A program made the translations under genes and the position numbers. Of a stretch of DNA of 64,000 bases, positions 14,505-32,534 are shown in pieces. The notes below the pieces were generated by a model. It had not been told where the DNA came from. It worked only from the letters and a program-made list of their open reading frames with translations, and did not search any database. This DNA comes from Escherichia coli (GTDB lineage Bacteria > Pseudomonadota > Gammaproteobacteria > Enterobacterales > Enterobacteriaceae): assembly GCF_044324875.1 (NCBI RefSeq), contig NZ_CP172185.1. The stretch is one strand, 5' to 3'. Numbering within the stretch: the stretch's first letter is position 1; every line of letters begins with the position of its first letter.

Positions 14505-16007
14505 TTATTCATCAATTCGCGGATGTTGCTGCACCAGGCGAGTACGTTTCGCCTGCAAATCGGCAATCTCGTGGTCAATATCATCGATTTTCTGCTCGAT
14601 ATTATCGTAATGCTCGACGAGAATTTCCTTCGCTTCCTGTATATCTGACGCCGCCGGTGTCGCACCTTTCAACGGACGATTCGCCGTCTCTTTCATGGTT
14701 ACGCCGGTGATTAAACCAACCACCGCCACTACCATCAGGTAATAGGCAGGCATCATCAAATTCTGCGAGCTTTCGACCAGCCAGGCCGCCAGCGTTGGCG
14801 TCAGACCGGCAACCAGCACCGAAATATTAAATGCCGCCGCCAGCGCGCTGTAACGGATATGCGTCGGGAACATCGCTGGCAAGGTAGAGGCCATAACGCC
14901 CGTAAAGCAGTTAAGGATCACCGCCAGCATCAGTAACCCGGCAAAAATCAGGCCGATGACGTTACTGTTAATCAGAATAAACGCCGGGATCGCCAACACA
15001 AACAGTGCAACACTACCAAGTAGCACAAACGGACGACGGCCAAAACGGTCACTCAGCAAGCCCATCACCGGCTGGACAAACAGCATACCGATCATAATGG
15101 CGATAATAATCAGCACCCCGTGGTCTTCGGAGTAATGCAGGTTATGCGACAAATAACTCGGCATATAGGTCAGCAACATGTAGTAAGTCACGTTGGTGGC
15201 AATTACCAGACCAATACATGTCAACAGGCTGCGCCAGTATTTAGTGGCAATCTCTTTAAACGAGACTTTCGGGCCATCCTGCAAACCTTCGCGGTCGCCC
15301 TGCTCCAGTTTATCAACATGCTGCTGGAACGCCGGAGTCTCTTCCAGCGCATGGCGCAGGTAAAGCCCGATAATCCCTAACGGCAGAGCAATAAAGAACG
15401 GAATACGCCAGCCCCAGTCGAGGAAGTTCGCTTCGCCGACAATGGTCGAAATTAACACCACCACGCCCGCACCCAGCACAAACCCGGCAATAGAACCGAA
15501 GTCCAGCCAGCTGCCCATAAATCCACGTTTACGGTCAGGGGAGTATTCCGCAACAAATATCGACGCCCCGGTATATTCACCGCCGACCGAGAAACCTTGT
15601 GCCATCTTACAGATCAACAGCAGAATCGGTGCCCAAATACCAATCGTGTCGTAGGACGGTATTAAGCCAATACAGAAGGTACTGATCGACATAATCACAA
15701 TAGTGATAGCGAGGATCTTCTGGCGACCATATTTATCGCCCAACATACCAAAGAAGAGTCCACCAAGCGGTCGAATCAGAAAGGGAACGGAGAAAGTGGC
15801 AAGTGCAGCAACCATCTGCACGCTGGGGTCAGCCCCCGGGAAAAAAACTTTACCTAATGCGTAAGCAACAAAACCATAAACACCAAAATCGAACCATTCC
15901 ATTGCATTACCCAGTGATGCTGCGGTAATGGCTTTACGCAATTTACCGTCATCAATAATGGTGACATCACGAAGGGTAATCGGTTTTACTTTTTTCCTTT
16001 TCAGCAT
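14505..16007 (-). CDS. proP: Proline/glycine betaine:H+ symporter (MFS) with C-terminal coiled coil
   Basis: 500 aa; MFS transporter with coiled-coil tail (…DIDHEIADLQAKRTRLVQQ…); start set at MLKRKKVKPITL. Confidence 0.95.
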   Translation of the reverse strand: MLKRKKVKPITLRDVTIIDDGKLRKAITAASLGNAMEWFDFGVYGFVAYALGKVFFPGADPSVQMVAALATFSVPFLIRPLGGLFFGMLGDKYGRQKILAITIVIMSISTFCIGLIPSYDTIGIWAPILLLICKMAQGFSVGGEYTGASIFVAEYSPDRKRGFMGSWLDFGSIAGFVLGAGVVVLISTIVGEANFLDWGWRIPFFIALPLGIIGLYLRHALEETPAFQQHVDKLEQGDREGLQDGPKVSFKEIATKYWRSLLTCIGLVIATNVTYYMLLTYMPSYLSHNLHYSEDHGVLIIIAIMIGMLFVQPVMGLLSDRFGRRPFVLLGSVALFVLAIPAFILINSNVIGLIFAGLLMLAVILNCFTGVMASTLPAMFPTHIRYSALAAAFNISVLVAGLTPTLAAWLVESSQNLMMPAYYLMVVAVVGLITGVTMKETANRPLKGATPAASDIQEAKEILVEHYDNIEQKIDDIDHEIADLQAKRTRLVQQHPRIDE

Positions 16008-17149: not shown

Positions 17150-19374
17150 TATCGTTCTGCCGTGAAAAGTGTTTGAATATCATCGCGTAACAGCTGAGCG
17201 TCGGTATAAATCCAGCTGTGAGTCATCACAGTCTGCTGCAATTGCTGCTGCATCAGCCTGACCACCGATTCATTTTGTTGACGCAGAGCCAGGCTTTCGC
17301 GTAAACGCGTCTGTAATTCCGTCAAACATGAAGCGAACTCAGCGAAAAAAGTATTCATGCCTGCCGTAACAGATTCATCGACCTGCTCTGCCAGAACTTT
17401 AGCCATTTGTTGGCAATAAAGATCGACTTCTGCGCTTAATGCTCGTTGCAACACACTGTAATCAACCGTCTCTGTCGGGGATTTCTCATTTCCCCGTCCC
17501 CAGTCGGGCTGATTCAACCAGCGCGAAAAAGTCTCACGCACAACGCCTAAACGCGTGCTCTGCTCGTCCGTTGCTTCCTGGCGCGAAATGACTTCACTGA
17601 ACAGCTGGCGAGTGTTGAAGTGGGGAACTGCGCCGTGAAAAACAGGAAAATGAAACCCAGGACGAAACCCTGACTCGCTCAATTCCATTTTGATTTGTTG
17701 CTCAATGGGGCGAATAACATCGGTTAACACCCGGCAAAGGGTGGATTCCAGCTCGGCAAAACGCAGCGTAAAGTCGCGACTAATGGTGTTCTGCGCCGTC
17801 TGTAACAGTGTCTCACAGCGGGTACGAATCTCGCTTAACGGCTCCGAATCATCCTGAAACAAGGCGGCTAACTGCGCATTCAGCGCATCTTGCTGTTGAC
17901 GCAGAAAGTGGTTGGCGGAGGTCAGGGCCAGCTCGATTTCATGTTTAATCTCGCCGCTCACCTGCGCCTGATTGAGTTGCAATAGCTGCAAACTTTCTTC
18001 GATCTGATGGATATTTTGCCGCAATTGTTCACAAGCGACGTTTAACCCGTGCGCACGAAAATCCAGGTATTCCCGCGCCTGCTGCGCGTAATTCAACAGT
18101 TTATGCGCGGCAGATCGCAGAGCATACAACGAGGCGTTAGCGTAAGCGGCATGAAGCAACGCCTGAATTGGCTGGGCGAACAGCGAATCTTCCCACAACT
18201 GATCGGCAGCATGACGAATATGTTCGAGGTCAGCCAGATCGGCATGACGCCAGCGCCTGCCGAGCGCGGCATGGGCAAAATCTTCCACCCAGCGTTGTTG
18301 CTCTGGCGGTGGTAACTTACCGTTGTTGGCTAACTCATGGCGCGCCCGATTCGCCAGGTAGCCCCACATCGACGACACCGGAAATATCTGCTGTGGCGTA
18401 ATACAGCCTTTCATCAGCGTCCCGGAAATCAGTGCCCGCACCTGGTCGGCGTCGTCACTGTTACGATCCTGTTGATCGAACTTATTGACCAGCACATACA
18501 GCGGCACCGATTGCCCCACCGCCAAAATCGCCTCACGGACCTCTTCATCGGAGATCGATTTCAGTTGCGTATAATCCAGCACTGCCAGTACCGCCGAGGC
18601 GCGTGCCAGCTGCTGGTTAAGCATTTTTTGCAGATGCGGTTGCCCGGCTTCATTTGGCCCGGGGGTATCCAGTAACGTCAACTGACCGGGATAACTCTCC
18701 AGCCCCGCCAGATGGACAAACTCCACTTCAATCACGGGAATATGCTCAATGGCGGCGTAAGCAGAAAAAGGAAAATCGACGTCCAGCGCCTTCGCCAGTC
18801 GCACCAAATCATTCAAACTTTTCAGACAATGAAAAATAGGCTGGGCACCCAGATAATATTTTTCGAAAGCGACGCCATTTTCGATCCGCTGCATAAGCGC
18901 ACGCATATCTTTATCTATTTCCAGCACATCGGTCAGATGCTTAATATCGCAATCACGCAGGCGCTGTTGTAATTTTTGAATTAAACAATCGATTGGCGCG
19001 ACATGTGAAAAATGCAGTACCGGTTCCTTTTGCCCGGGCGTATGGCGAATAAGCGTCGGCAGCGCAGTCATTGGGCGATTACGATTAGGCAAAACCTCCG
19101 TACCAACAATGGCATTAATGGTGGTTGATTTCCCTGCTTTCATGGTACCGACAATCGCCAGCACCATTTCCAGTCGGGAAATTTTACGCAACTCATTATT
19201 CAGCATCGCGTGACGTTCGGCGATATTAGGCTGACTCCAGGGTAAAGCCAGTTGTGGCGCATCGTCTCCGGGGACAGAGAGAGGCATTTTTTCCAGTAAC
19301 TGCAACTGTTGGCGAGAAAGCTGTAACAGGCGTTCAGCCTCCTGACTTAACTCATACAGGGTCTGTGTGTACAT
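17146..19374 (-). CDS. crfC: Dynamin-like GTPase (CrfC/YjdA)
   Basis: 742 aa; P-loop GTMKAGKST, long coiled-coil-rich C-terminal region. Confidence 0.85.
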   Translation of the reverse strand: MYTQTLYELSQEAERLLQLSRQQLQLLEKMPLSVPGDDAPQLALPWSQPNIAERHAMLNNELRKISRLEMVLAIVGTMKAGKSTTINAIVGTEVLPNRNRPMTALPTLIRHTPGQKEPVLHFSHVAPIDCLIQKLQQRLRDCDIKHLTDVLEIDKDMRALMQRIENGVAFEKYYLGAQPIFHCLKSLNDLVRLAKALDVDFPFSAYAAIEHIPVIEVEFVHLAGLESYPGQLTLLDTPGPNEAGQPHLQKMLNQQLARASAVLAVLDYTQLKSISDEEVREAILAVGQSVPLYVLVNKFDQQDRNSDDADQVRALISGTLMKGCITPQQIFPVSSMWGYLANRARHELANNGKLPPPEQQRWVEDFAHAALGRRWRHADLADLEHIRHAADQLWEDSLFAQPIQALLHAAYANASLYALRSAAHKLLNYAQQAREYLDFRAHGLNVACEQLRQNIHQIEESLQLLQLNQAQVSGEIKHEIELALTSANHFLRQQQDALNAQLAALFQDDSEPLSEIRTRCETLLQTAQNTISRDFTLRFAELESTLCRVLTDVIRPIEQQIKMELSESGFRPGFHFPVFHGAVPHFNTRQLFSEVISRQEATDEQSTRLGVVRETFSRWLNQPDWGRGNEKSPTETVDYSVLQRALSAEVDLYCQQMAKVLAEQVDESVTAGMNTFFAEFASCLTELQTRLRESLALRQQNESVVRLMQQQLQQTVMTHSWIYTDAQLLRDDIQTLFTAERY

Positions 19375-19775
19375 AGAAAATTCTTCCTTAAAGCAAATTT
19401 TGTTACTTTTATTTAGCCAGATTGTTTTTGAGTTCTGTTTTCGGCTTTTATAATTACTGCAAGAAATAATTTTATATTTAGCGTGTTGTTTTTTATTAGA
19501 ATAAATAACGTCTTCCGATACGTTTAAAACGTCAGAAAGATAAAAATATCATTTGAATTAAAAAAAGAACAAGTAGAGCATTAACCTTATCTTAAATAAT
19601 AAATGGAGGCAAAAAGATTATTTTCTTTTTGCGTTTCCTTTCAAATGAAAACGATCGTCGTCTAAAATCAGCAGTACCCCCGACAAACTCAGGGATTTTG
19701 TGTATAATTGCGGCCTTTTTCGGCAATCTGCCGTTTTTTGGCGCTTTTGCCCTGCTGACTTTTGAGGAAATCCAC

Positions 19776-20111
19776 ATGTCATTACCACACTGCCCAAAAT
19801 GCAACTCCGAATACACCTACGAAGATAACGGCATGTACATCTGCCCGGAATGTGCCTACGAATGGAACGACGCAGAACCTGCACAGGAAAGCGACGAGCT
19901 GATCGTTAAAGATGCTAACGGCAATCTGCTGGCTGACGGCGACAGCGTTACCATCATTAAAGATCTGAAGGTGAAAGGTAGCTCTTCGATGCTGAAAATT
20001 GGCACCAAAGTGAAAAACATCCGCCTGGTTGAAGGCGACCATAACATCGATTGCAAAATCGACGGTTTTGGTCCGATGAAACTGAAATCTGAGTTTGTGA
20101 AAAAGAACTGA
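19776..20111 (+). CDS. phnA: PhnA-family zinc-ribbon protein
   Basis: 111 aa starting [30 protein letters not shown] (two CxxC pairs); ORF track's 160 aa version is an upstream extension. Confidence 0.9.
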
Positions 20112-20126
20112 TTGTATTGTGATCGG

Positions 20127-20215
20127 TAAGCCGGATAAGGCGCTCGCGCCGCATCCGGCAACGATGCCGACAGCCTGATGCGACGCTGACCGCGTCTTAT
20201 CAGGCTTCCCTCTCA
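20127..20215. repeat. BIME-type REP cluster between phnA and phnB
   Basis: Two inverted REP-like units (gccggataaggcgc… / …gcgtcttatcaggc). Confidence 0.6.
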
Positions 20216-20270
20216 TCTGTATAAATTTCGAACTACACTTAACTGGCTTCTCTTAACTGAGGTCACCATC

Positions 20271-20714
20271 ATGCCGTTAAGTCCCTACCTCTCTTTTGCC
20301 GGTAACTGTGCCGACGCAATTGCTTATTATCAACGTACGTTGGGCGCTGAACTGCTCTATAAAATCAGCTTCGGCGAAATGCCAAAATCAGCGCAGGACA
20401 GCGCCGAGAACTGCCCTTCCGGAATGCAATTTCCCGATACCGCCATCGCCCACGCCAATGTGCGCATTGCCGGAAGCGATATCATGATGAGCGATGCTAT
20501 ACCGTCAGGAAAAGCCAGCTACTCCGGCTTTACGCTGGTGCTCGATTCGCAACAGGTCGAAGAAGGAAAACGCTGGTTTGACAACCTTGCCGCTAACGGA
20601 AAAATCGAAATGGCCTGGCAGGAAACTTTCTGGGCGCATGGCTTCGGCAAAGTCACCGATAAATTTGGCGTACCGTGGATGATTAATGTCGTCAAACAAC
20701 AACCAACGCAATAA
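20271..20714 (+). CDS. phnB: PhnB, glyoxalase/VOC-fold protein
   Basis: 147 aa, recognised PhnB sequence (MPLSPYLSFAGNCADAIAYYQ…). Confidence 0.9.
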   Translation: MPLSPYLSFAGNCADAIAYYQRTLGAELLYKISFGEMPKSAQDSAENCPSGMQFPDTAIAHANVRIAGSDIMMSDAIPSGKASYSGFTLVLDSQQVEEGKRWFDNLAANGKIEMAWQETFWAHGFGKVTDKFGVPWMINVVKQQPTQ

Positions 20715-20769
20715 TCCGCCGGGAGGCCCGCCCTCCCGCACTGTCATCGAATTCCCGTTAACTCTTCAT

Positions 20770-20804
20770 CTGTTAGTCACTTTTAATTAACCAAATCGTC
20801 ACAA
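20770..20804 (+). promoter_or_regulatory. Candidate Pho box (PhoB binding) of the phnC promoter
   Basis: 11-bp periodic repeats tTAGTCAC tttt aATTAAC caaa TCGTCAC about 45-75 bp upstream of phnC, resembling the CTGTCAT-N4-CTGTCAT consensus; exact boundaries uncertain. Confidence 0.45.
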
Positions 20805-20846
20805 TAATCCGCCACGATGGAGCCACTTTTTTAGGGAGGCTGCATC

Positions 20847-21635
20847 ATGCAAACGATTATCCGTGTCGAGAAGCTCGCCAAAACCTTCAATCAGCATCAG
20901 GCGCTGCACGCGGTTGATCTGAACATTCATCACGGTGAAATGGTGGCTCTGCTTGGGCCGTCGGGTTCCGGCAAATCCACCCTTTTACGTCACTTAAGCG
21001 GTTTGATTACCGGCGATAAATCTGCCGGTAGCCATATTGAGCTGCTGGGCCGCACAGTCCAGCGCGAAGGCCGCCTGGCCCGCGATATCCGCAAAAGCCG
21101 CGCCAACACCGGCTACATCTTCCAACAATTCAACCTGGTGAATCGCCTGAGCGTACTGGAGAACGTGCTGATTGGCGCGCTCGGCAGCACGCCATTCTGG
21201 CGCACCTGTTTTAGCTACTTCACTCGCGAGCAGAAACAGCGCGCGTTACAGGCGCTGACCCGCGTTGGCATGGTGCACTTTGCCCATCAGCGCGTTTCCA
21301 CCCTCTCCGGCGGACAGCAGCAGCGTGTGGCGATTGCCCGTGCGCTGATGCAGCAGGCGAAGGTGATTCTGGCCGATGAACCCATCGCCTCGCTGGACCC
21401 GGAATCGGCGCGCATCGTGATGGACACCCTGCGCGACATTAACCAGAACGACGGCATTACCGTGGTCGTCACGCTGCATCAGGTGGATTACGCCCTGCGC
21501 TACTGCGAACGCATCGTCGCCCTGCGCCAGGGGCACGTCTTCTACGACGGCAGCAGCCAACAGTTTGATAACGAACGTTTTGACCATCTCTACCGCAGCA
21601 TCAACCGCGTCGAAGAAAACGCGAAAGCTGCCTGA
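20847..21635 (+). CDS. phnC: Phosphonate ABC transporter ATPase
   Basis: Walker [13 protein letters not shown] signature [15 protein letters not shown]. Confidence 0.95.
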
Positions 21636-21659
21636 CATCCCCATCATTGAGGAAAACGA

Positions 21660-22676
21660 ATGAACGCTAAGATAATTGCCTCGCTGGCCTTCACCAGCAT
21701 GTTCAGCCTCAGCACCCTGTTAAGCCCGGCGCACGCCGAAGAGCAGGAAAAGGCGCTGAATTTCGGCATTATTTCAACGGAATCACAGCAAAACCTGAAA
21801 CCGCAATGGACGCCGTTCTTACAGGATATGGAGAAGAAGCTGGGCGTAAAGGTCAACGCCTTCTTTGCCCCGGACTACGCGGGCATTATCCAGGGGATGC
21901 GCTTCAATAAAGTGGATATCGCCTGGTACGGCAATCTGTCGGCGATGGAAGCGGTGGATCGCGCCAACGGTCAGGTCTTCGCCCAGACGGTCGCGGCGGA
22001 TGGATCGCCGGGTTACTGGAGCGTGTTGATCGTCAACAAAGACAGTCCGATCAACAACCTGAACGATCTGCTGGCGAAGCGTAAAGATCTCACCTTCGGC
22101 AATGGCGATCCTAACTCCACCTCTGGCTTCCTCGTCCCCGACTACTACGTCTTCGCCAAAAACAATATCTCCGCCAGCGACTTCAAGCGCACCGTCAACG
22201 CCGGGCATGAAACCAACGCGCTGGCCGTCGCCAACAAGCAGGTGGATGTGGCGACCAACAACACCGAAAACCTCGACAAGCTGAAAACCTCCGCACCGGA
22301 GAAGCTCAAAGAACTGAAGGTGATCTGGAAATCGCCGCTGATCCCAGGCGATCCGATCGTCTGGCGCAAAAATCTGTCCGAAACCACCAAAGACAAGATC
22401 TACGACTTCTTTATGAACTACGGCAAGACGCCGGAAGAGAAAGCGGTGCTGGAGCGCCTGGGATGGGCCCCGTTCCGCGCCTCCAGCGACCTGCAACTGG
22501 TGCCGATTCGCCAACTCGCACTGTTTAAAGAGATGCAGGGCGTAAAAGGTAATAAAGGGCTGAATGAGCAGGACAAGCTGGCAAAAACCAGCGCCATTCA
22601 GGCGCAACTGGATGACCTGGACCGCCTGAACAACGCGTTAAGCGCGATGAGTTCGGTGAGTAAAGCGGTGCAGTAA
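21660..22676 (+). CDS. phnD: Phosphonate ABC transporter periplasmic binding protein
   Basis: 338 aa with N-terminal signal peptide; operon position. Confidence 0.95.
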   Translation: MNAKIIASLAFTSMFSLSTLLSPAHAEEQEKALNFGIISTESQQNLKPQWTPFLQDMEKKLGVKVNAFFAPDYAGIIQGMRFNKVDIAWYGNLSAMEAVDRANGQVFAQTVAADGSPGYWSVLIVNKDSPINNLNDLLAKRKDLTFGNGDPNSTSGFLVPDYYVFAKNNISASDFKRTVNAGHETNALAVANKQVDVATNNTENLDKLKTSAPEKLKELKVIWKSPLIPGDPIVWRKNLSETTKDKIYDFFMNYGKTPEEKAVLERLGWAPFRASSDLQLVPIRQLALFKEMQGVKGNKGLNEQDKLAKTSAIQAQLDDLDRLNNALSAMSSVSKAVQ

Positions 22677-22679
22677 ATC

Positions 22680-22768
22680 GTAAGTCGGATAAGACGCCAC
22701 GGCGTCGCATCCGACAATGTGCAGACGTTGATGCCGGATGCGGTGCAAGCACCTTATCCGGCCTACAG
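22680..22768. repeat. REP/BIME inside the phn operon (phnD-phnE spacer)
   Basis: gtcggataagacgc… / …gccggatgcggtg…ccttatccggcctac inverted REP units. Confidence 0.6.
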
Positions 22769-22781
22769 ACCGGAGCCAAAC

Positions 22782-23561
22782 ATGCAAACCATCACCATCG
22801 CCCCACCCAAGCGCAGCTGGTTCTCGCTTCTGAGCTGGGCCGTTGTTCTCGCCGTGCTGGTCGTCTCGTGGCAGGGCGCGGAAATGGCCCCGCTCACGCT
22901 GATTAAAGACGGCGGCAACATGGCAACCTTCGCCGCCGACTTCTTCCCGCCCGATTTCAGCCAGTGGCAGGATTACCTCACCGAAATGGCCGTCACGCTG
23001 CAAATCGCCGTCTGGGGCACCGCGCTGGCGGTGGTTCTCTCCATCCCCTTTGGCCTGATGAGCGCCGAAAACCTGGTGCCGTGGTGGGTTTACCAGCCCG
23101 TTCGCCGCCTGATGGACGCCTGCCGCGCCATTAACGAGATGGTCTTCGCCATGCTGTTCGTGGTCGCCGTCGGTCTCGGTCCGTTCGCTGGCGTACTGGC
23201 GCTGTTTATCCACACCACCGGCGTACTCTCCAAACTGCTTTCCGAAGCGGTAGAAGCAATTGAACCCGGCCCGGTGGAAGGTATTCGCGCCACCGGTGCC
23301 AACAAGCTCGAAGAGATCCTCTACGGCGTGCTGCCGCAGGTGATGCCGCTGCTGATCTCCTACTCCCTCTATCGCTTCGAATCCAACGTCCGTTCGGCCA
23401 CCGTTGTTGGCATGGTCGGCGCGGGCGGGATCGGCGTCACCCTGTGGGAAGCGATTCGCGGTTTCCAGTTCCAGCAAACCTGCGCCCTGATGGTGCTGAT
23501 TATCGTCACGGTCAGCCTGCTGGATTTCCTCTCTCAACGGTTGCGTAAGCACTTTATCTGA
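22782..23561 (+). CDS. phnE: Phosphonate ABC transporter permease, apparently intact
   Basis: Uninterrupted 259-codon frame from ATG 22782 with six predicted TM segments; ORF track's upstream extension runs into the REP element. Confidence 0.85.
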
Positions 23562-23581
23562 TAAGCGAGGCATTGATATCT

Positions 23582-24307
23582 ATGCACTTGTCTACACATC
23601 CGACCAGCTACCCAACACGCTATCAGGAGATAGCCGCAAAACTTGAGCAGGAGCTTCGTCAACACTACCGCTGCGGCGACTATCTTCCCGCCGAGCAGCA
23701 ACTGGCGGCGCGCTTTGAGGTGAACCGCCACACCCTGCGCCGCGCCATCGACCAACTGGTGGAAAAAGGCTGGGTACAGCGCCGTCAGGGCGTCGGCGTG
23801 CTGGTACTGATGCGCCCGTTCGATTACCCGCTCAACGCCCAGGCGCGTTTTAGCCAGAACCTGCTGGATCAGGGCAGCCATCCCACCAGCGAAAAACTGC
23901 TGTCGGTGCTGCGCCCGGCCTCCGGTCACGTCGCTGACGCGCTGGGGATAACCGAGGGCGAGAACGTTATCCACCTGCGCACCCTGCGTCGGGTCAACGG
24001 CGTCGCGCTCTGTTTAATCGACCACTACTTTGCGGATCTCACCCTCTGGCCGACGCTGCAACGCTTCGACAGCGGCTCGCTGCACGATTTTCTGCGCGAG
24101 CAAACGGGGATTGCGCTGCGCCGCAGCCAGACGCGGATCAGCGCCCGCCGCGCCCAGGCCAAAGAGTGCCAGCGTCTTGAAATCCCGAATATGTCGCCGC
24201 TGCTGTGCGTGCGCACCCTTAACCACCGTGACGGTGAAAGCAGCCCGGCGGAGTACTCCGTCAGCCTGACGCGCGCCGACATGATTGAATTCACTATGGA
24301 GCACTGA
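23582..24307 (+). CDS. phnF: GntR-family transcriptional repressor of the phn operon
   Basis: N-terminal GntR HTH, UTRA-like C-terminus; start set at ATG 23582. Confidence 0.9.
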   Translation: MHLSTHPTSYPTRYQEIAAKLEQELRQHYRCGDYLPAEQQLAARFEVNRHTLRRAIDQLVEKGWVQRRQGVGVLVLMRPFDYPLNAQARFSQNLLDQGSHPTSEKLLSVLRPASGHVADALGITEGENVIHLRTLRRVNGVALCLIDHYFADLTLWPTLQRFDSGSLHDFLREQTGIALRRSQTRISARRAQAKECQRLEIPNMSPLLCVRTLNHRDGESSPAEYSVSLTRADMIEFTMEH

Positions 24308-24760
24308 ATGCACGCAGATACCGCGACCCGCCAGCACTGGATGTCCATACTGGCACACAGCCAACCGGCTGAACTGGCAGCCCGCCTGAAGGCGCTGAAC
24401 ATCACTGCCGACTATGAAGTAATCCGCGCCGCTGAAACCGGCCTGGTGCAGATTCAGGCGCGGATGGGTGGCACCGGCGAACGCTTTTTTGCTGGCGACG
24501 CCACGCTCACCCGCGCCACCGTACGCCTGACTGACGGCACGCTCGGCTACAGCTGGGTGCTGGGGCGCGACAAACAGCACGCCGAACGCTGCGCGCTGAT
24601 TGACGCGCTGATGCAGCAAACCCGCCATTTTCAAAACTTATCAGAAACCCTTATTGCCCCGCTGGACGCTGACCGTATGGCACGCATTGCCGCACGCCAG
24701 GCCGAAGTGAACGCCAGCCGGGTCGACTTCTTTACGATGGTTCGCGGAGATAACGCATGA
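24308..24760 (+). CDS. phnG: C-P lyase core complex subunit
   Basis: 150 aa, operon position, translational coupling to phnF/phnH. Confidence 0.9.
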
Positions 24761-25341
24761 CCCTGGAAACCGCTTTTATGCTTCCTGTGCAGGATGCCCA
24801 GCACAGTTTTCGTCGCCTGTTAAAGGCCATGAGCGAGCCGGGCGTGATTGTCGCCCTGCATCAGCTCAAACGCGGCTGGCAGCCGCTGAATATCGCCACC
24901 ACCAGCGTGCTGCTGACGCTGGCCGATAACGACACGCCGGTGTGGCTTTCTGCGCCATTAAGTAACGATATCGTCAGCCAGAGCCTGCGTTTTCATACCA
25001 ACGCGCCGCTGGTCAATCAGCCGGAACTGGCGACCTTCGCGGTAACGGATGAGGCGATTTCCAGCGAACAGCTTAACGCCCTTTCCAGCGGCACCGCTGT
25101 TGCGCCAGAAGCGGGCGCGACGCTGATTTTACAGGTCGTCAGCCTGAGCGGCGGGCGCATGCTGCGCCTTACTGGCGCGGGTATTGCCGAAGAACGAATG
25201 ATCGCCCCGCAGCTGCCGGAGTGCATTCTGCACGAACTTACCGAGCGCCCGCACCCGTTCCCGCTCGGCATCGACCTGATCCTGACCTGCGGCGAGCGGC
25301 TGCTGGCTATCCCGCGAACCACTCATGTGGAGGTGTGCTGA
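24757..25341 (+). CDS. phnH: C-P lyase core complex subunit
   Basis: 194 aa; overlapping stops/starts with neighbours. Confidence 0.9.
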
Positions 25342-26405
25342 TGTACGTTGCCGTGAAAGGGGGCGAGAAGGCGATCGACGCCGCCCACGCCCTGCAAGAG
25401 AGCCGACGCCGGGGCAATACCGATTTGCCTGAACTGAGCGTCGCCCAGATTGAACAGCAGCTTAACCTCGCGGTAGATCGCGTGATGACCGAAGGCGGCA
25501 TTGCCGACCGCGAACTGGCGGCGCTGGCGCTGAAACAGGCCAGCGGCGATAACGTCGAAGCAATTTTCCTGCTGCGCGCCTACCGTACCACGCTGGCGAA
25601 GCTGGCGGTAAGCGAGCCGCTCGACACCACGGAGATGCGTCTCGAACGGCGTATTTCAGCGGTGTATAAAGATATTCCCGGCGGCCAGCTGCTTGGCCCA
25701 ACCTACGACTACACCCACCGCCTGCTCGATTTCACCCTGCTGGCAAACGGCGAAGCGCCGACGCTGACCACAGCCGACAGCGAACAACAGCCGTCGCCGC
25801 ACGTTTTCAGCCTGCTGGCGCGTCAGGGGCTGGCGAAGTTTGAAGAGGATAGCGGCGCACAGCCGGATGACATCACCCGCACGCCGCCGGTTTACCCCTG
25901 CTCACGCTCCTCCCGCCTGCAACAATTAATGCGCGGGGACGAAGGCTATTTGCTGGCGCTGGCCTACTCCACCCAGCGTGGTTACGGGCGCAATCACCCG
26001 TTCGCAGGCGAAATCCGCAGCGGCTATATCGACGTGTCGATTGTGCCGGAAGAGCTGGGATTTGCGGTGAACGTCGGCGAACTGCTGATGACCGAATGTG
26101 AAATGGTCAACGGTTTTATCGACCCGCCGGATGAGCCGCCGCACTTCACGCGCGGCTACGGGCTGGTGTTCGGCATGAGCGAGCGCAAAGCGATGGCGAT
26201 GGCGCTGGTTGACCGTGCGTTGCAGGCTCCGGAGTACGGCGAGCACGCGACAGGCCCGGCGCAGGATGAAGAGTTCGTGCTGGCGCATGCCGACAACGTC
26301 GAAGCCGCAGGCTTTGTCTCGCACCTCAAACTCCCCCACTACGTCGATTTCCAGGCCGAACTGGAGCTACTCAAACGTCTGCAACAGGAGCAGAACCATG
26401 GCTAA
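25341..26405 (+). CDS. phnI: C-P lyase core complex subunit (nucleosidase-like PhnI)
   Basis: 354 aa from ATG 25341 ([13 protein letters not shown]…). Confidence 0.9.
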   Translation: MYVAVKGGEKAIDAAHALQESRRRGNTDLPELSVAQIEQQLNLAVDRVMTEGGIADRELAALALKQASGDNVEAIFLLRAYRTTLAKLAVSEPLDTTEMRLERRISAVYKDIPGGQLLGPTYDYTHRLLDFTLLANGEAPTLTTADSEQQPSPHVFSLLARQGLAKFEEDSGAQPDDITRTPPVYPCSRSSRLQQLMRGDEGYLLALAYSTQRGYGRNHPFAGEIRSGYIDVSIVPEELGFAVNVGELLMTECEMVNGFIDPPDEPPHFTRGYGLVFGMSERKAMAMALVDRALQAPEYGEHATGPAQDEEFVLAHADNVEAAGFVSHLKLPHYVDFQAELELLKRLQQEQNHG

Positions 26406-27243
26406 TCTGAGCGGCTACAACTTTGCTTACCTCGACGAGCAGACCAAACGCATGATCCGCCGCGCCATCTTAAAAGCGGTGGCGATCCCCGGTTATCAGG
26501 TGCCGTTTGGCGGGCGCGAGATGCCGATGCCGTACGGCTGGGGAACCGGCGGCATACAGCTTACCGCCAGCGTGATTGGCGAAAGCGATGTGCTGAAGGT
26601 GATTGACCAGGGCGCGGATGACACCACCAACGCCGTGTCGATTCGCAACTTCTTTAAGCGCGTGACCGGGGTAAACACCACTGAACGTACGGACGATGCG
26701 ACGCTTATCCAGACGCGCCACCGCATCCCCGAAACGCCGCTGACCGAAGATCAGATCATTATTTTCCAGGTGCCGATCCCGGAACCGCTGCGCTTTATCG
26801 AGCCGCGCGAAACGGAGACCCGCACTATGCACGCGCTGGAGGAGTACGGCGTGATGCAGGTGAAACTGTATGAAGATATCGCCCGCTTCGGTCATATCGC
26901 CACCACCTATGCCTATCCGGTGAAGGTGAACGGGCGCTACGTGATGGACCCGTCGCCGATCCCGAAATTCGATAACCCAAAAATGGACATGATGCCCGCC
27001 CTGCAGCTGTTCGGCGCAGGACGCGAGAAGCGCATCTATGCGGTGCCGCCGTTTACCCGCGTGGAAAGCCTCGATTTCGACGATCACCCGTTCACCGTTC
27101 AACAGTGGGATGAGCCGTGCGCCATCTGCGGATCGACCCACAGCTATCTCGACGAAGTGGTACTGGATGACGCCGGAAACCGCATGTTTGTCTGCTCCGA
27201 TACCGATTATTGCCGCCAACAGAGCGAGGCGAAAAGCCAATGA
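26398..27243 (+). CDS. phnJ: C-P lyase catalytic subunit (radical SAM-like, Cys-rich C-terminus)
   Basis: 281 aa from ATG 26398 (MANLSGYNFAYLDEQTKR…); C-terminal CxxCxxxxxC-type cysteine cluster (CAICGSTHSYLDEVVLDDAGNRMFVCSDTDYC). Confidence 0.9.
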   Translation: MANLSGYNFAYLDEQTKRMIRRAILKAVAIPGYQVPFGGREMPMPYGWGTGGIQLTASVIGESDVLKVIDQGADDTTNAVSIRNFFKRVTGVNTTERTDDATLIQTRHRIPETPLTEDQIIIFQVPIPEPLRFIEPRETETRTMHALEEYGVMQVKLYEDIARFGHIATTYAYPVKVNGRYVMDPSPIPKFDNPKMDMMPALQLFGAGREKRIYAVPPFTRVESLDFDDHPFTVQQWDEPCAICGSTHSYLDEVVLDDAGNRMFVCSDTDYCRQQSEAKSQ

Positions 27244-27998
27244 ATCAACCGTTACTTTCGGTCAATAACCTGACCCACCTTTACGCGCCGGGCAAAGGCT
27301 TTAGCGATGTTTCTTTTGATTTATGGCCGGGGGAAGTGCTGGGCATCGTCGGGGAATCCGGCTCCGGGAAGACCACGCTGCTGAAATCAATCTCCGCGCG
27401 CCTGACGCCGCAGCAGGGGGAGATTCGCTATGAAAACCGCTCCCTCTATGGCATGAGCGAAGCCGACCGCCGCCGTTTACTGCGCACCGAATGGGGCGTG
27501 GTACATCAGCATCCGCTCGACGGCCTGCGCCGCCAGGTGTCGGCAGGCGGCAATATCGGCGAGCGGCTGATGGCGACCGGGGCGCGTCATTACGGCGACA
27601 TCCGCGCCACCGCGCAGAAGTGGCTGGAAGAGGTGGAGATTCCCGCCAACCGGATCGACGACCTGCCGACCACCTTTTCCGGCGGCATGCAGCAACGTTT
27701 GCAGATTGCCCGCAACCTGGTGACGCATCCGAAGCTGGTGTTTATGGACGAACCAACCGGCGGGCTGGATGTGTCGGTGCAGGCGCGCCTGCTCGACCTG
27801 CTGCGCGGCCTGGTGGTGGAGCTGAACCTGGCGGTGGTGATTGTCACCCACGATTTAGGCGTCGCCCGCCTGCTGGCGGACCGTTTGCTGGTGATGAAGC
27901 AGGGGCAAGTAGTGGAGAGTGGGTTAACCGACCGCGTGCTCGACGACCCTCACCATCCATATACCCAGCTGCTGGTGTCATCGGTTTTGCAGAATTGA
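27240..27998 (+). CDS. phnK: C-P lyase associated ABC-type ATPase
   Basis: Walker [10 protein letters not shown], signature FSGGMQQR; start ATG overlaps phnJ stop (ATGA). Confidence 0.9.
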
Positions 27999-28003
27999 GC
28001 CAG

Positions 28004-28088
28004 TGCCGGATACGGCGTAAACGCCTTATCCGGCCGACAAATGCGCTCCCCGTAGGTCGGATAAGACGCGTCAGCGTCGCATCCGACA
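28004..28088. repeat. REP/BIME inside the phn operon (phnK-phnL spacer)
   Basis: gccggatacggcgtaaacgccttatccggcc … gtcggataagacgcgtcagcgtcgcatccgac. Confidence 0.6.
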
Positions 28089-28108
28089 CCCGAACCACGA
28101 GGCGAAAA

Positions 28109-28789
28109 ATGATTAACGTACAAAACGTCAGTAAAACCTTCATCCTGCACCAGCAAAACGGCGTGCGCCTGCCCGTCTTACAACGTGCCTCGCTCACCGT
28201 CAACGCAGGCGAATGCGTGGTGCTTCACGGCCACTCCGGCAGCGGAAAATCAACCCTGCTGCGCTCGCTGTACGCCAACTATCTGCCCGATGAAGGTCAA
28301 ATCCAGATCAAACACGGTGATGAGTGGGTAGACCTGATCACCGCGCCAGCCCGCAAAGTGGTGGAGATCCGCAAAACCACCATCGGCTGGGTGAGCCAGT
28401 TTCTGCGCGTCATCCCGCGTATTTCGGCACTGGAAGTGGTGATGCAGCCTCTGCTCGATACCGGCGTACCGCGTGAAGCCTGCGCCGCTAAAGCCGCCCG
28501 ATTACTGACGCGCCTGAACGTGCCTGAACGCCTGTGGCACCTGGCACCATCGACCTTCTCCGGCGGCGAACAGCAGCGCGTCAACATCGCCCGTGGCTTT
28601 ATCGTCGACTATCCGATTCTGCTGCTGGATGAACCCACCGCCTCGCTGGACGCTAAAAACAGCGCCGCGGTGGTGGAACTCATTCGCGAAGCCAAAGCCC
28701 GTGGCGCGGCCATCGTCGGTATCTTCCATGACGAAGCCGTACGCAATGACGTCGCCGACCGCCTGCACCCGATGGGAGCCTCTTCATGA
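28109..28789 (+). CDS. phnL: C-P lyase associated ABC-type ATPase
   Basis: 226 aa from ATG 28109 ([11 protein letters not shown]…), Walker [10 protein letters not shown]. Confidence 0.9.
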
Positions 28790-29922
28790 TTATCAATAAC
28801 GTCAAACTGGTGCTGGAAAACGAAGTGGTGCACGGTTCACTGGAGGTGCAGGATGGCGAAATCCGCGCCTTTGCCGAAAGCCAGAGCCGCCAGCCGGAAG
28901 CGATGGACGGCGAAGGTGGCTGGCTACTGCCCGGACTGATTGAGCTGCATACCGACAACCTCGATAAATTCTTCACCCCGCGCCCGAAAGTTGACTGGCC
29001 TGCCCACTCGGCGATGAGCAGCCACGACGCGCTGATGGTGGCAAGCGGCATCACCACCGTACTGGACGCGGTGGCGATTGGCGACGTGCGCGACGGCGGC
29101 GATCGGCTGGAGAATCTGGAGAAGATGATCAACGCCATCGAAGAGACGCAGAAACGCGGCGTCAACCGCGCCGAGCACCGCCTGCACCTGCGCTGCGAAC
29201 TGCCGCACCACACCACGTTGCCGCTGTTTGAAAAACTGGTGCAGCGCGAACCTGTGACGCTGGTATCGCTGATGGACCACTCGCCAGGCCAGCGCCAGTT
29301 CGCCAATCGCGAGAAGTATCGCGAATATTATCAGGGCAAATATTCCCTCACCGATGCGCAGATGCAGCAGTACGAAGAAGAGCAATTGGCGCTCGCCGCA
29401 CGCTGGTCGCAGCCAAATCGCGAAACCATCGCCGCAATGTGCCGCGCGCGATACATTGCGCTCGCCAGCCACGATGACGCCACGCACGCCCACGTTGCCG
29501 AATCCCACCAGCTTGGCAGCGTGATTGCCGAATTTCCCACCACGTTCGAAGCGGCAGAAGCCTCGCGCAAGCATGGCATGAACGTGCTGATGGGCGCGCC
29601 GAATATCGTGCGCGGCGGTTCGCACTCCGGCAACGTGGCGGCCAGTGAACTGGCGCAGCTTGGCCTGCTGGATATCCTCTCTTCCGACTACTACCCCGCC
29701 AGCCTGCTCGATGCGGCATTTCGCGTCGCCGATGACGAGAGCAACCGCTTTACGCTGCCGCAGGCGGTGAAGCTGGTGACTAAAAATCCGGCGCAGGCGC
29801 TTAATCTTCAGGATCGCGGAGTGATTGGCGAGGGCAAACGCGCCGACCTGGTGCTGGCGCATCGCAAGGGCAACCACATTCATATCGACCACGTCTGGCG
29901 TCAGGGTAAAAGGGTGTTCTGA
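28786..29922 (+). CDS. phnM: Amidohydrolase-fold PhnM (ribosyl-triphosphate 1-phosphonate diphosphohydrolase)
   Basis: 378 aa; metal-binding HTDN motif near N-terminus. Confidence 0.9.
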
Positions 29923-30479
29923 TGACGGGAAAACTGATTTGGTTAATGGGGGCCTCTGGCTCCGGAAAAGACAGTCTGTTGACGGAACTTCGCCAGCGGG
30001 AACAAACTCAGCTACTGGTAGCGCATCGCTACATCACGCGCGCCGCCAGCGCCGGAAGTGAAAACCATATCGCCCTGAGCGAGCAGGAGTTTTTTACCCG
30101 CGCGGGGCAGAACCTTCTGGCCTTAAGCTGGCACGCTAACGGTCTGTATTATGGCGTCGGCGTCGAGATTGACCTCTGGCTGCACGCCGGATTCGACGTG
30201 CTGGTCAACGGCTCACGCGCGCATTTGCCGCAGGCACGGGCGCGCTATCAATCGGCGCTGTTGCCCGTTTGTTTACAGGTTTCGCCGGAGATCCTGCGCC
30301 AGCGCCTGGAAAACCGTGGTCGTGAAAATGCCAGTGAAATTAACGCCCGACTGGCACGCGCTGCCCGCTATACTCCTCAGGATTGTCTTACGCTCAATAA
30401 TGACGGCAGCCTGCGCCAGTCGGTCGACAAGCTGCTGACGCTGATTCATCAGAAGGAGAAACACCATGCCTGCTTGTGA
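29922..30479 (+). CDS. phnN: Ribose 1,5-bisphosphate phosphokinase
   Basis: 185 aa; P-loop GASGSGKDS. Confidence 0.9.
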
Positions 30480-30900
30480 GCTTCGCCCGGCTACGCAGTA
30501 CGACACCGACGCAGTTTACGCGCTGATTTGTGAGCTAAAACAGGCGGAGTTTGACCACCACGCGTTTCGCGTGGGCTTTAACGCCAACCTGCGCGACCCA
30601 AACATGCGCTACCATCTGGCGCTACTGGATGGCGAAGTTGTCGGCATGATCGGCCTGCATTTGCAGTTTCATCTGCATCATGTCAACTGGATCGGCGAAA
30701 TTCAGGAACTGGTGGTGATGCCGCAGGCGCGCGGTCTGAACATCGGCAGTAAATTACTGGCATGGGCAGAAGAAGAAGCCCGCCAGGCCGGGGCCGAAAT
30801 GACCGAGCTTTCGACCAACGTGAAGCGCCACGACGCGCACCGTTTCTATCTGCGCGAAGGCTACGAGCAGAGCCATTTCCGCTTCACCAAGGCGCTGTAA
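30466..30900 (+). CDS. phnO: GNAT aminoalkylphosphonate N-acetyltransferase
   Basis: 144 aa GNAT fold (…[26 protein letters not shown]…). Confidence 0.9.
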
Positions 30901-30901
30901 C

Positions 30902-31660
30902 ATGAGCCTGACCCTCACACTTACTGGCACTGGCGGCGCACAGGGCGTTCCCGCATGGGGCTGTGAGTGCGCGGCCTGCGCCAGAGCGCGGCGCTCACCG
31001 CAGTATCGCCGCCAGCCATGCAGCGGCGTCGTGAAGTTTAACGACGCGATCACCCTGATCGACGCCGGGCTGCACGATCTCGCCGATCGCTGGTCGCCCG
31101 GATCGTTCCAGCAGTTTTTGCTGACGCACTACCATATGGATCACGTGCAGGGGCTGTTTCCGCTGCGCTGGGGCGTGGGCGATTCGATCCCGGTCTACGG
31201 CCCGCCGGATGAACAGGGCTGCGACGATCTGTTTAAACATCCGGGCCTGCTTGATTTCAGCCACACGGTGGAACCGTTTGTAGTGTTTGATTTGCAGGGA
31301 TTACAGGTCACGCCGCTGCCGCTCAATCATTCGAAACTCACTTTCGGCTATTTACTGGAAACGGCACATAGCCGGGTGGCGTGGCTGTCTGACACCGCAG
31401 GCCTGCCGGAAAAAACGCTGAAATTTTTACGCAATAATCAGCCACAGGTAATGGTGATTGATTGCAGCCACCCACCGCGCGAGGATGCACCGCGTAATCA
31501 CTGTGATTTAAATACCGTGCTTGCGCTGAATCAGGTTATCCGCTCGCCACGGGTGATTCTGACCCATATCAGCCACCAGTTTGATGCGTGGCTGATGGAA
31601 AACGCACTGCCGTCGGGGTTTGAGGCGGGGTTTGATGGGATGGAGATTGGGGTGGCGTGA
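30902..31660 (+). CDS. phnP: Metallo-beta-lactamase-fold phosphodiesterase
   Basis: 252 aa; HYHMDH metal-binding motif. Confidence 0.9.
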
Positions 31661-31682
31661 TGGGAGGGAATGTGCGCGCTGG

Positions 31683-31797
31683 CCCCCTCACCCTAACCCT
31701 CTCCCCAGAGGGGCGAGGGGACCGATTGTGCTCGATATTGAATATTGCGCTGGTTTTCTCCCTCGCCCCATTGGGGAGAGGGCCGGGGTGAGAGGCG
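31683..31797. repeat. GC-rich composite inverted repeat (boxC-like) between convergent phnP and yjdP
   Basis: Arm A ccccctcaccctaaccctctccccagaggggcgagggga (31683-31721) and arm B tctccctcgccccattggggagagggccggggtgagagg (31757-31797) are near reverse complements, separated by about 35 bp containing a short AT palindrome. Confidence 0.5.
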
Positions 31798-31818
31798 ATG
31801 CCTGCTCCATACCCAACA

Positions 31819-32148
31819 TCAACGCCCATACTCATCTTCCATTCTCCGCTCTTCATCTTCTAGCTGCCGACGCTCCTGATCCAGCTGGCGCTGGCGATCG
31901 TCCAGCTGCCTGCGGCGATCTTCAAACTGGCGGCGGCGATCGTCATATTGTCTGCGCCGATCGTCGTTCACTTCACGCTGCCAGCCGTCGTCGCGCGAAT
32001 CTTCATAGTCTCGCCCACGGTCAGGGTTATAAGCGTCGTTAATCGCCTGCTGAATATTGCCAATGGTGTCGTCGATAATATCGGCCTGGGCCGGAACGGT
32101 GGACAGCGTGAGCAGGGTGAATAAAAGAAATAGCGGAAAGCGTTTCAT
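31819..32148 (-). CDS. yjdP: Small secreted protein YjdP with periodic acidic/basic repeats
   Basis: 109 aa; N-terminal signal peptide MKRFPLFLLFTLLTLSTVPAQA followed by repeats of the DDRRRQ type; degenerate 24-bp DNA periodicity visible. Confidence 0.8.
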   Translation of the reverse strand: MKRFPLFLLFTLLTLSTVPAQADIIDDTIGNIQQAINDAYNPDRGRDYEDSRDDGWQREVNDDRRRQYDDRRRQFEDRRRQLDDRQRQLDQERRQLEDEERRMEDEYGR

Positions 32149-32216
32149 TAGCCAACCTCAAAAAGAAACTCTATCCACATTAGTCATTACTCATCCATGC
32201 AAGTAGTGGATGAATC

Positions 32217-32534
32217 TCAATTTCTCCGCTGCTCTATTGCCGTAATCGCCTCCACGCGTTGTTGATGACGACCGCCTTCGTACTGCGCGCCCAGCCACGC
32301 ATCCACAATCATTTTTGCCAGTTCGAGGCCAACCACTCGTGAACCAAAAGCCAGTGCAACTTCACTGGCGTAATGCGGATAATCAGTACGCTCTGACGAC
32401 CTGGTTTCTTTATCAATCCCCTCACTCATTGACCATGAATAAAAGGCTGGCACAGCAACGCAGAATCCTGCGGTGCCAGCGACATGACCGCCCATTGCTC
32501 CGGTACGTTTTTTAATAAAAAACACCGGTTGCAT
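32217..32534 (-). pseudogene. rpiB: Truncated ribose-5-phosphate isomerase B remnant
   Basis: C-terminal ~46 residues (AFGSRVVGLELAKMIVDAWLGAQYEGGRHQQRVEAITAIEQRRN) and the SSERTDYPHYAS segment match RpiB as I recall it, but the central catalytic region (ICGTGVG… block) is missing and the N-terminal 40 residues are not recognisable. Confidence 0.6.

Follow-up and report, generated by a model that had tools for sequence, protein, structure and literature searches.

The window analyzed here, a stretch of 64,000 nucleotides (nt) from one strand of Escherichia coli contig NZ_CP172185.1, contains the phosphonate operon phnCDEFGHIJKLMNOP, in which paired repetitive extragenic palindromic (REP) elements occupy two intercistronic spacers, phnD-phnE (D-E) and phnK-phnL (K-L). 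The D-E spacer (22677-22781, plus strand, 105 nt) separates phnD (21660-22676, plus strand, stop codon TAA at 22674-22676), which encodes the periplasmic phosphonate-binding protein, from phnE (22782-23561, plus strand), which encodes a permease of 259 amino acids (aa) and is intact here, whereas phnE of K-12 MG1655 is annotated as a pseudogene (phnE1). The K-L spacer (27999-28108, plus strand, 110 nt) lies between phnK (27240-27998, plus strand, stop codon TGA at 27996-27998), encoding an ATP-binding cassette (ABC)-type ATPase of the carbon-phosphorus lyase complex, and phnL (28109-28789, plus strand), encoding a second ABC-type ATPase of 226 aa. The first-pass annotation, made from the letters alone, had placed paired REPs in these two spacers and described most other phn junctions as translationally coupled. 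Both descriptions were borne out, since each spacer holds one Y-type and one Z2-type unit and 9 of the 13 phn junctions overlap or abut in the gene map, long spacers being present only at D-E and K-L.

The other genes of the operon map to 20847-21635 (phnC), 23582-24307 (phnF), 24308-24760 (phnG), 24757-25341 (phnH), 25341-26405 (phnI), 26398-27243 (phnJ), 28786-29922 (phnM), 29922-30479 (phnN), 30466-30900 (phnO), and 30902-31660 (phnP). With overlaps given as negative values, the distances between consecutive genes are 24 nt for C-D, 105 for D-E, 20 for E-F, 0 for F-G, -4 for G-H, -1 for H-I, -8 for I-J, -4 for J-K, 110 for K-L, -4 for L-M, -1 for M-N, -14 for N-O, and +1 for O-P. The RefSeq annotation of both strain JNEC-KY178 and K-12 gives the gene order yjdM, yjdN, phnCDEFGHIJKLMNOP, yjdP.

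At D-E, a 37-nt Z2-type REP (22680-22716, plus strand) is followed, after a 15-nt linker, by a 35-nt Y-type REP (22732-22766) with its GTAG-leading strand on the minus strand. At K-L, a 35-nt Y-type REP comes first (28004-28038, minus strand) and is separated by a 13-nt linker from a 37-nt Z2-type REP (28052-28088, plus strand). For E. coli REPs, of which K-12 carries about 600 copies, lengths of 35 nt (y) and 37 nt (z2), a GTAG leader, a stem bulge, and the pairing of y with z2 into bacterial interspersed mosaic elements (BIMEs), defined as two inverse REPs plus a linker, have been described (PMC8266576). The pair in each of the two spacers, with one Y and one Z2 unit in inverted orientation, is BIME-2-like. 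A Hamming-distance scan found the four units to differ at 0 to 5 positions from REP consensus sequences, and the REP core pattern matched six times in the 64-kb window, four of these matches falling in the two phn spacers, against 0 expected from 100 shuffles. Both pairs are extragenic, between annotated genes. Further REP copies are present in the window at 1599, 20126, and 53420; two of them are Y-type units, at 1599-1633 and 53420-53446.

Both elements are ordinary E. coli BIMEs that were already known. The one at D-E corresponds to EcoCyc REP324, listed for the tandem pair phnD->phnE at MG1655 positions 4323247-4323333 (supplement of bioRxiv 10.64898/2026.03.23.713779), and the one at K-L, whose spacer occupies MG1655 positions 4317896-4318005, is presumably the REP numbered before REP324; the K-12 RefSeq record used here has no annotated repeat features. 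Position, the presence of two units, and a near-identical sequence are common to the K-12 elements and those of the window strain, which differ by three substitutions in each spacer and otherwise contain the identical four units. The differences include a GTAA leader in the Z2 unit at D-E (22680-22683; GTAG in K-12), a GTCG in place of GTAG in the Y unit at K-L (28035-28038), and, in this same K-L Y unit, a stem mismatch that is reduced relative to K-12. The GTAG leader is therefore found in all four units of K-12 and in two of the four units of the window (Y at D-E and Z2 at K-L). Since the REP transposase requires GTAG (PMC8266576), the D-E Z2 and K-L Y copies, judged by their sequence, are probably immobile, their hairpins having been kept.

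Every REP was predicted to fold as a separate RNA hairpin, at 22684-22715 and 22733-22762 (mRNA strand) in the D-E spacer and at 28005-28034 and 28056-28087 in the K-L spacer, and the spacers gave folding energies of about -44 to -50 kcal/mol with z scores of -3.1 to -4.8. Internal stem mismatches are present in all four predicted hairpins. The Shine-Dalgarno sequences of the downstream genes, GGAG for phnE (22772-22775, plus strand, 9 nt past the last hairpin) and GAGG for phnL (28099-28102, plus strand, 11 nt past the last hairpin), were unpaired in the centroid folds. The first predicted hairpin begins 7 nt past the stop codon of phnD and 6 nt past that of phnK, so that stable predicted stem-loops stand directly 3' of the upstream cistron in a polycistronic transcript, as in mRNA-stabilizing intercistronic REPs of the malE-malF type. 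Searches for intrinsic terminators and internal promoters gave none in the spacers: none of the 20 terminator-like U-tract sites located in 20000-32500, and no sigma-70-like promoter site, lay inside either spacer, and the sequences past the hairpins were without T runs.

The short distance between stop codon and hairpin, which at both sites is below the 15 nt given for translation-regulating REPs, bears on a further reading of these elements. REPs of this class are reported to hold up ribosomes at termination and to reduce how much of the preceding gene is translated, according to the account of Liang et al. (2015) given in PMC12306157. By analogy, a hairpin 6 to 7 nt past the stop codon might stall ribosomes terminating on phnD and phnK, with mRNA cleavage, transfer-messenger RNA (tmRNA) tagging, and less PhnD and PhnK as a consequence. 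This effect would be opposite to an expectation of higher upstream expression, yet it is compatible, and can coexist, with the mRNA-level explanation favored below. The spacing, however, varies between alleles, the first strong hairpin of the BoxC-containing K-L allele of other E. coli strains lying more than 20 nt past the phnK stop codon, and a brake on PhnD is hard to square with the excess in which binding proteins are normally required. We consider such a brake unlikely.

We then examined which sequences occupy the two spacers in other E. coli strains. The segment 22300-28497 is 100% identical to strain JNEC-KY178 and 95 to 99% identical to most of the 5,399 matching E. coli genomes; outside this segment, the phn region (compared over 18300-31660) differs from JNEC-KY178 by 107 mismatches, which makes the locus a recombination mosaic. 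A comparison of REP presence across strains had been suggested in the first-pass annotation, and in a set of some 5,390 complete E. coli genomes the REP pair was indeed the common state, in about 72% of the genomes at D-E and about 90% at K-L, while BoxC palindromes filled the same spacers in about 28% and 10%, respectively. In numbers, the D-E spacer carried the REP pair in about 3,876 of 5,395 genomes and was BoxC derived in about 1,506, in the form either of a 60- to 61-nt single hairpin (CCCCTCTCCC...GGGAGAGGG) or of a 125-nt inverted BoxC pair; a separate count of the double-BoxC form was confounded, since the short hairpin allele matches over 80% of the query for that form too. The K-L spacer carried the REP pair in 4,841 genomes and a 176-nt sequence with two BoxC units in 546. 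As these two numbers add up to 5,387, which is all genomes matching both flanks, no empty K-L site was seen, nor was one seen at D-E among the roughly 5,390 genomes. The alleles at the two junctions are unlinked: strain HS combines BoxC at D-E with REPs at K-L, and strain 2014C-3599 has BoxC at both.

The alternative spacer sequences match the BoxC/PIT/TMECO consensus published in PMC4666352. Like the REP pairs, these repeats sit at precisely these junctions, in the smaller share of E. coli genomes as well as in Pseudocitrobacter, Leclercia, and Kluyvera, and form very stable hairpins, the BoxC spacers of E. coli folding with z scores of -3.6 and -7.3. They nevertheless belong to an unrelated sequence family (CCCTCTCCC...GGGAGAGGGTTAGGGTGAGGGG) and are absent from the two spacers of the window. 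The window does contain one inverted BoxC/PIT/TMECO pair elsewhere, at 31684-31795, between the stop codon of phnP and the convergent gene yjdP. K-12 has a related copy after phnP (TMECO no. 22 in PMC4666352), and only a GGGTGAGGGG remnant is present at this place in JNEC-KY178.

To compare the junctions beyond E. coli, one genome per species was scanned with PhnK, giving 80 loci from Enterobacteriaceae to Pseudomonas, Vibrionaceae, and Alphaproteobacteria; gene boundaries were set by tblastn with automatic start codon choice, and spacer lengths are thus good to a few nucleotides. The D-E spacer measured at least 50 nt in all 29 species with clear orthologues (median, 71 nt) and was more structured than dinucleotide shuffles (z < -2) in 20 of the 29, with a median z score of -3.5. 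Its content varied: REPs were found in Citrobacter, Cedecea, and an Enterobacter, BoxC elements in Pseudocitrobacter, Leclercia, Kluyvera, and an Enterobacter metagenome-assembled genome (MAG), and a plain hairpin in Hafnia. The K-L spacer had a median length of 19 nt, measured 2 to 29 nt in 49 of 76 loci and at least 30 nt in 23 of 76, and was significantly structured in 10. Where it was expanded, it held palindromic repeats proper to the lineage, as in Enterobacter cloacae, Kluyvera, Citrobacter werkmanii, Cedecea sulfonylureivorans, Pseudomonas, and Rhizobiales. A different kind of expansion was seen in Yersinia thracica and Y. artesiana, with K-L spacers of 58 to 76 nt that contain short direct repeats (e.g., CTGTCCATCAAACCC / CTGTCTATCAAACCC) and in which no hairpin was predicted. 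The two sites thus differ, D-E being long in all 29 species and usually strongly structured and K-L usually short and unstructured. These results fit a conserved structured slot after the binding-protein gene at D-E and suggest that K-L is a permissive, non-overlapping gap in which REP-type insertions are sporadic and lineage specific.

Among the other genera, Pseudocitrobacter faecalis DSM 27453 has a phn operon that is much closer to that of E. coli than those of Citrobacter or Kluyvera, with 90 to 94% DNA identity and 98% identity of the PhnK protein. It carries BoxC arrays of 251 nt at D-E and 298 nt at K-L, flanked in the same way as the BoxC alleles found in E. coli, a likeness that suggests either transfer between lineages or an old shared BoxC state. 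Across 20700-31660, nucleotide identity to other genera falls at the K-L boundary, from 83 to 85% for phnC-K to 78 to 79% for phnL-P, and in Pseudocitrobacter from 94 to 90%, the downstream block evolving faster.

The distribution of alleles and species could also be read as neutral or selfish occupancy, REP and BoxC elements having settled in the only junctions that tolerate an insertion and being without meaningful effect on phn expression. Insertable sites are few, given that 9 of the 13 junctions overlap or abut, and the K-L junction, a short gap without repeats in most taxa, was occupied separately in several lineages, each time by repeats proper to the lineage (Enterobacter, Kluyvera, Citrobacter werkmanii, Cedecea, Pseudomonas, and Rhizobiales). 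The E. coli alleles are polymorphic in addition to being unlinked, two of the four REPs of the window are without the GTAG needed by the transposase, as decaying copies would be, and BoxC sites have been reported to be unstable and have no known role in expression. Against neutrality, all 29 species have a long and usually structured D-E spacer whichever repeat family fills it, and the C-D and E-F gaps (24 and 20 nt), although equally open in Enterobacteriaceae, are rarely expanded. That no empty allele was seen among about 5,390 E. coli genomes points the same way, though precise excision may simply be rare. Taken as an account of both spacers, neutral occupancy appears rather improbable to us; for K-L by itself it is plausible, and for D-E less so.

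The explanation that we regard as probable, with some reserve, is that the two elements are ordinary BIMEs whose hairpins act as leaky barriers and skew phn mRNA toward the upstream side. An abundance of mRNA biased to the upstream side by hairpins is the established behavior of intercistronic REPs. In the phn operon, both BIMEs would be transcribed within the single Pho-induced phnC-P mRNA, where each REP would form a stable hairpin. From what is established for REPs elsewhere, the hairpins would be expected to delay 3'-to-5' exonucleolytic degradation of the RNA upstream of them and, as weak attenuators, partly to reduce transcription into the downstream genes, the net outcome being a bias of mRNA abundance to the upstream side. 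BIME-associated attenuation was described by Espeli et al. (2001), as cited in PMC8266576. The D-E pair would fill a conserved stem-loop slot after the binding-protein gene, as in malE-malF and hisJ-hisQ, the slot at D-E being filled by REPs, BoxC repeats, or plain hairpins alike; the K-L pair would represent an Escherichia-lineage insertion into the sole non-overlapping junction of the phnG-P block, with a modest tuning effect at most.

The intercistronic REPs of malE-malF and hisJ-hisQ reportedly represent the classic "novel intercistronic regulatory element" of Higgins 1982 and Newbury 1987. As in those ABC importer operons, the REP pair at D-E comes right after the gene of a binding protein and before that of a permease. 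They differ in that the ATPase gene of the phn operon, phnC, lies upstream of phnD, and any stabilized fragment would therefore carry phnC and phnD together.

The closest experimental precedent lies about 2.5 kb upstream in the window, at the REP325/naRNA4 locus between yjdM and yjdN. In the window, this locus (20129-20206) is a single Y-Z2 unit that scores 85.5 bits with the Rfam model RF02564, and in K-12, REP325 consists of six tandem units with a 100-nt period (14806-15382 of the K-12 stretch compared). REP325 resembles the phn elements in its Y and Z2 types and in its location between tandem genes of one transcript. It differs in that the K-12 array has six tandem pairs (12 hairpins) against one pair per phn spacer and in that the D-E pair is reversed on the mRNA, with Z2 followed by Y. 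A 2026 preprint (bioRxiv 10.64898/2026.03.23.713779) reports that the REP325 array stabilizes the upstream yjdM mRNA and attenuates the downstream yjdN, its deletion lowering yjdM mRNA and raising yjdN about tenfold, and that tandem gene pairs separated by REPs have, genome-wide, a median log upstream/downstream ratio of 0.96, compared with -0.09 for controls.

The relation to naRNA4 is also the basis of a reading at the level of DNA or in trans, in which the BIMEs would be DNA gyrase (BIME-2) sites where supercoils of the induced 11-kb operon are released, or else the source of naRNA4-like RNAs acting with HU on the nucleoid. Gyrase cleavage of BIME-2 elements is cited in PMC8266576, and a naRNA4/HU model of the nucleoid has been published (PMC4550694). 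On the minus strand, which is antisense to phn, the D-E pair matched the naRNA4 model (RF02564) at 22683-22763; its score of 64.6 bits exceeds the gathering score of 59.5 bits (69.1 bits for the same pair in K-12). The mRNA strand of this pair scored below the threshold, however, at 49.8 bits, and the K-L pair also stayed below it, at 39 to 41 bits. Since RF02564 amounts to a description of a single Y-linker-Z2 REP pair, such a match indicates sequence membership and not function. The nucleoid part is weakened by the 2026 preprint, in which neither REP325 nor naRNA4 affected the nucleoid, and both parts by the BoxC alleles that replace the REPs in 10 to 28% of strains. We hold a role of this kind to be very unlikely.

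Returning to the leaky-barrier explanation, several observations weigh against it. A rare D-E allele, represented by strain HH45 and found in about four genomes in an 80 to 90% identity band, is without a significant hairpin (z = +0.3). Close relatives lack REPs at K-L and have spacers of 7 to 10 nt, little beyond the phnL ribosome-binding site (Citrobacter sp. FP75, Leclercia, an Enterobacter MAG, and Cedecea neteri), so that the K-L REPs are dispensable. In the 2026 preprint, REP325 fragments of two to four hairpins showed no Rho dependence, which was seen only with the full array, and REP effects were strongly context dependent. Our literature search yielded neither 3' ends nor half-lives or protein ratios of phn for the REP positions, and a search on phnD/phnE together with REP gave nothing relevant. 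Finally, RNA-seq of uninduced cells in LB medium gave a higher baseMean for phnL (118) than for phnK (32) (supplement of Harris et al. 2026), the opposite of an upstream bias, these values being a basal signal of unknown strandedness.

Under phosphate starvation, phn was found to be one transcript with coverage decreasing along the operon (Li et al. 2013). The same study assembled phnG-K and phnL-P subtranscripts under weakly expressing conditions, which is weakly consistent with a discontinuity at K-L. These subtranscripts might alternatively mean that the operon is subdivided and that phnL-P is transcribed as a separate unit beginning at the K-L spacer: Li et al. (2013) assembled phnL-P from cells entering starvation and phnG-K from heat-shocked cells, and the excess of phnL over phnK counts in LB would agree with this. 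Yet no sigma-70-like promoter was found in or near the K-L spacer, the assembled phnL-P "start" falls inside phnL, and the induced operon is one transcript. Moreover, part of the counts could come from an antisense RNA that spans phnL and the spacer. Subdivision at K-L is, in our judgment, highly improbable. An antisense RNA of 481 nt appears in the supplement of Li et al. (2013) at MG1655 positions 4315582-4316062 (older coordinates); it corresponds to about 27965-28445 on the minus strand of the window and takes in the K-L spacer in full, together with a 5' portion of phnL and 34 nt of phnK. The K-L REP pair might thus bound an antisense transcript.

The first-pass annotation had proposed that the REP hairpins could give higher expression of phnCD and phnG-K than of the genes downstream. 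The elements on which this relied are sound, as they are genuine BIMEs with stable predicted hairpins and have a precedent in REP325, but the outcome is not assured with hairpins only 6 to 7 nt from the stop codons. Being so near, the first hairpins may also cut termination efficiency and the yield of PhnD and PhnK, and, as REPs near a stop codon are reported to lower upstream translation, more upstream mRNA need not mean more of the two proteins. The net effect on protein ratios is for this reason uncertain, and the elements probably only fine-tune the expression of each gene. The same annotation had treated both sites alike, whereas D-E is a conserved structured slot and K-L looks like an insertion into a permissive gap. 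That interpretation, in our analysis, was reasonable textbook REP biology and partly supported, being too uniform across the two sites and leaving out the proximity to the stop codons.

A 432-aa open reading frame (ORF) at 27491-28789, in frame with phnL, had been dismissed in the first-pass annotation as an artefact, and we concur. It reads across the K-L REP pair into off-frame phnK, and its 5' extension (27491-28108, plus strand) is made up of this off-frame phnK reading plus the REP pair and is noncoding. The additional 206 residues are rich in Arg, Pro, Ala, and Gly. The possibility that the ORF encodes a genuine protein was rejected because Pfam matches fall within PhnL only and the extension lacks conservation: upstream of phnL, the frame stays open for 675 nt in the window, for 255 nt in K-12, for 48 nt where a strain has the BoxC allele, and for 9 to 354 nt in other genera. 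The 432-aa ORF should therefore stay unannotated.

It has been clear since the 1980s that operon spacers can hold REPs, and with the D-E element catalogued, the locus itself adds little new biology. The most useful new detail is the alternation of REP and BoxC at both spacers together with the structure of the D-E spacer across species. Concerning the phn operon, the two spacers need separate readings, one as a conserved structured slot and the other as a lineage-specific insertion. A more speculative idea, to which we give little weight at present, is that selection maintains a "hairpin slot" at phnD-phnE, and in Escherichia perhaps at phnK-phnL as well, which any sufficiently stable stem-loop could fill, with E. 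coli lineages swapping in modules of the unrelated REP and BoxC families. If this were true, it would give BoxC/PIT elements a role at the RNA level in operon expression, which had never been assigned to them before, and natural pairs of REP and BoxC alleles would be a ready test of how hairpin type relates to cistron ratios. Since such alleles are flanked by near-identical genes, they offer a cheap natural experiment on whether hairpins of this kind stabilize mRNA, terminate transcription, or brake translation, a question that is still debated.

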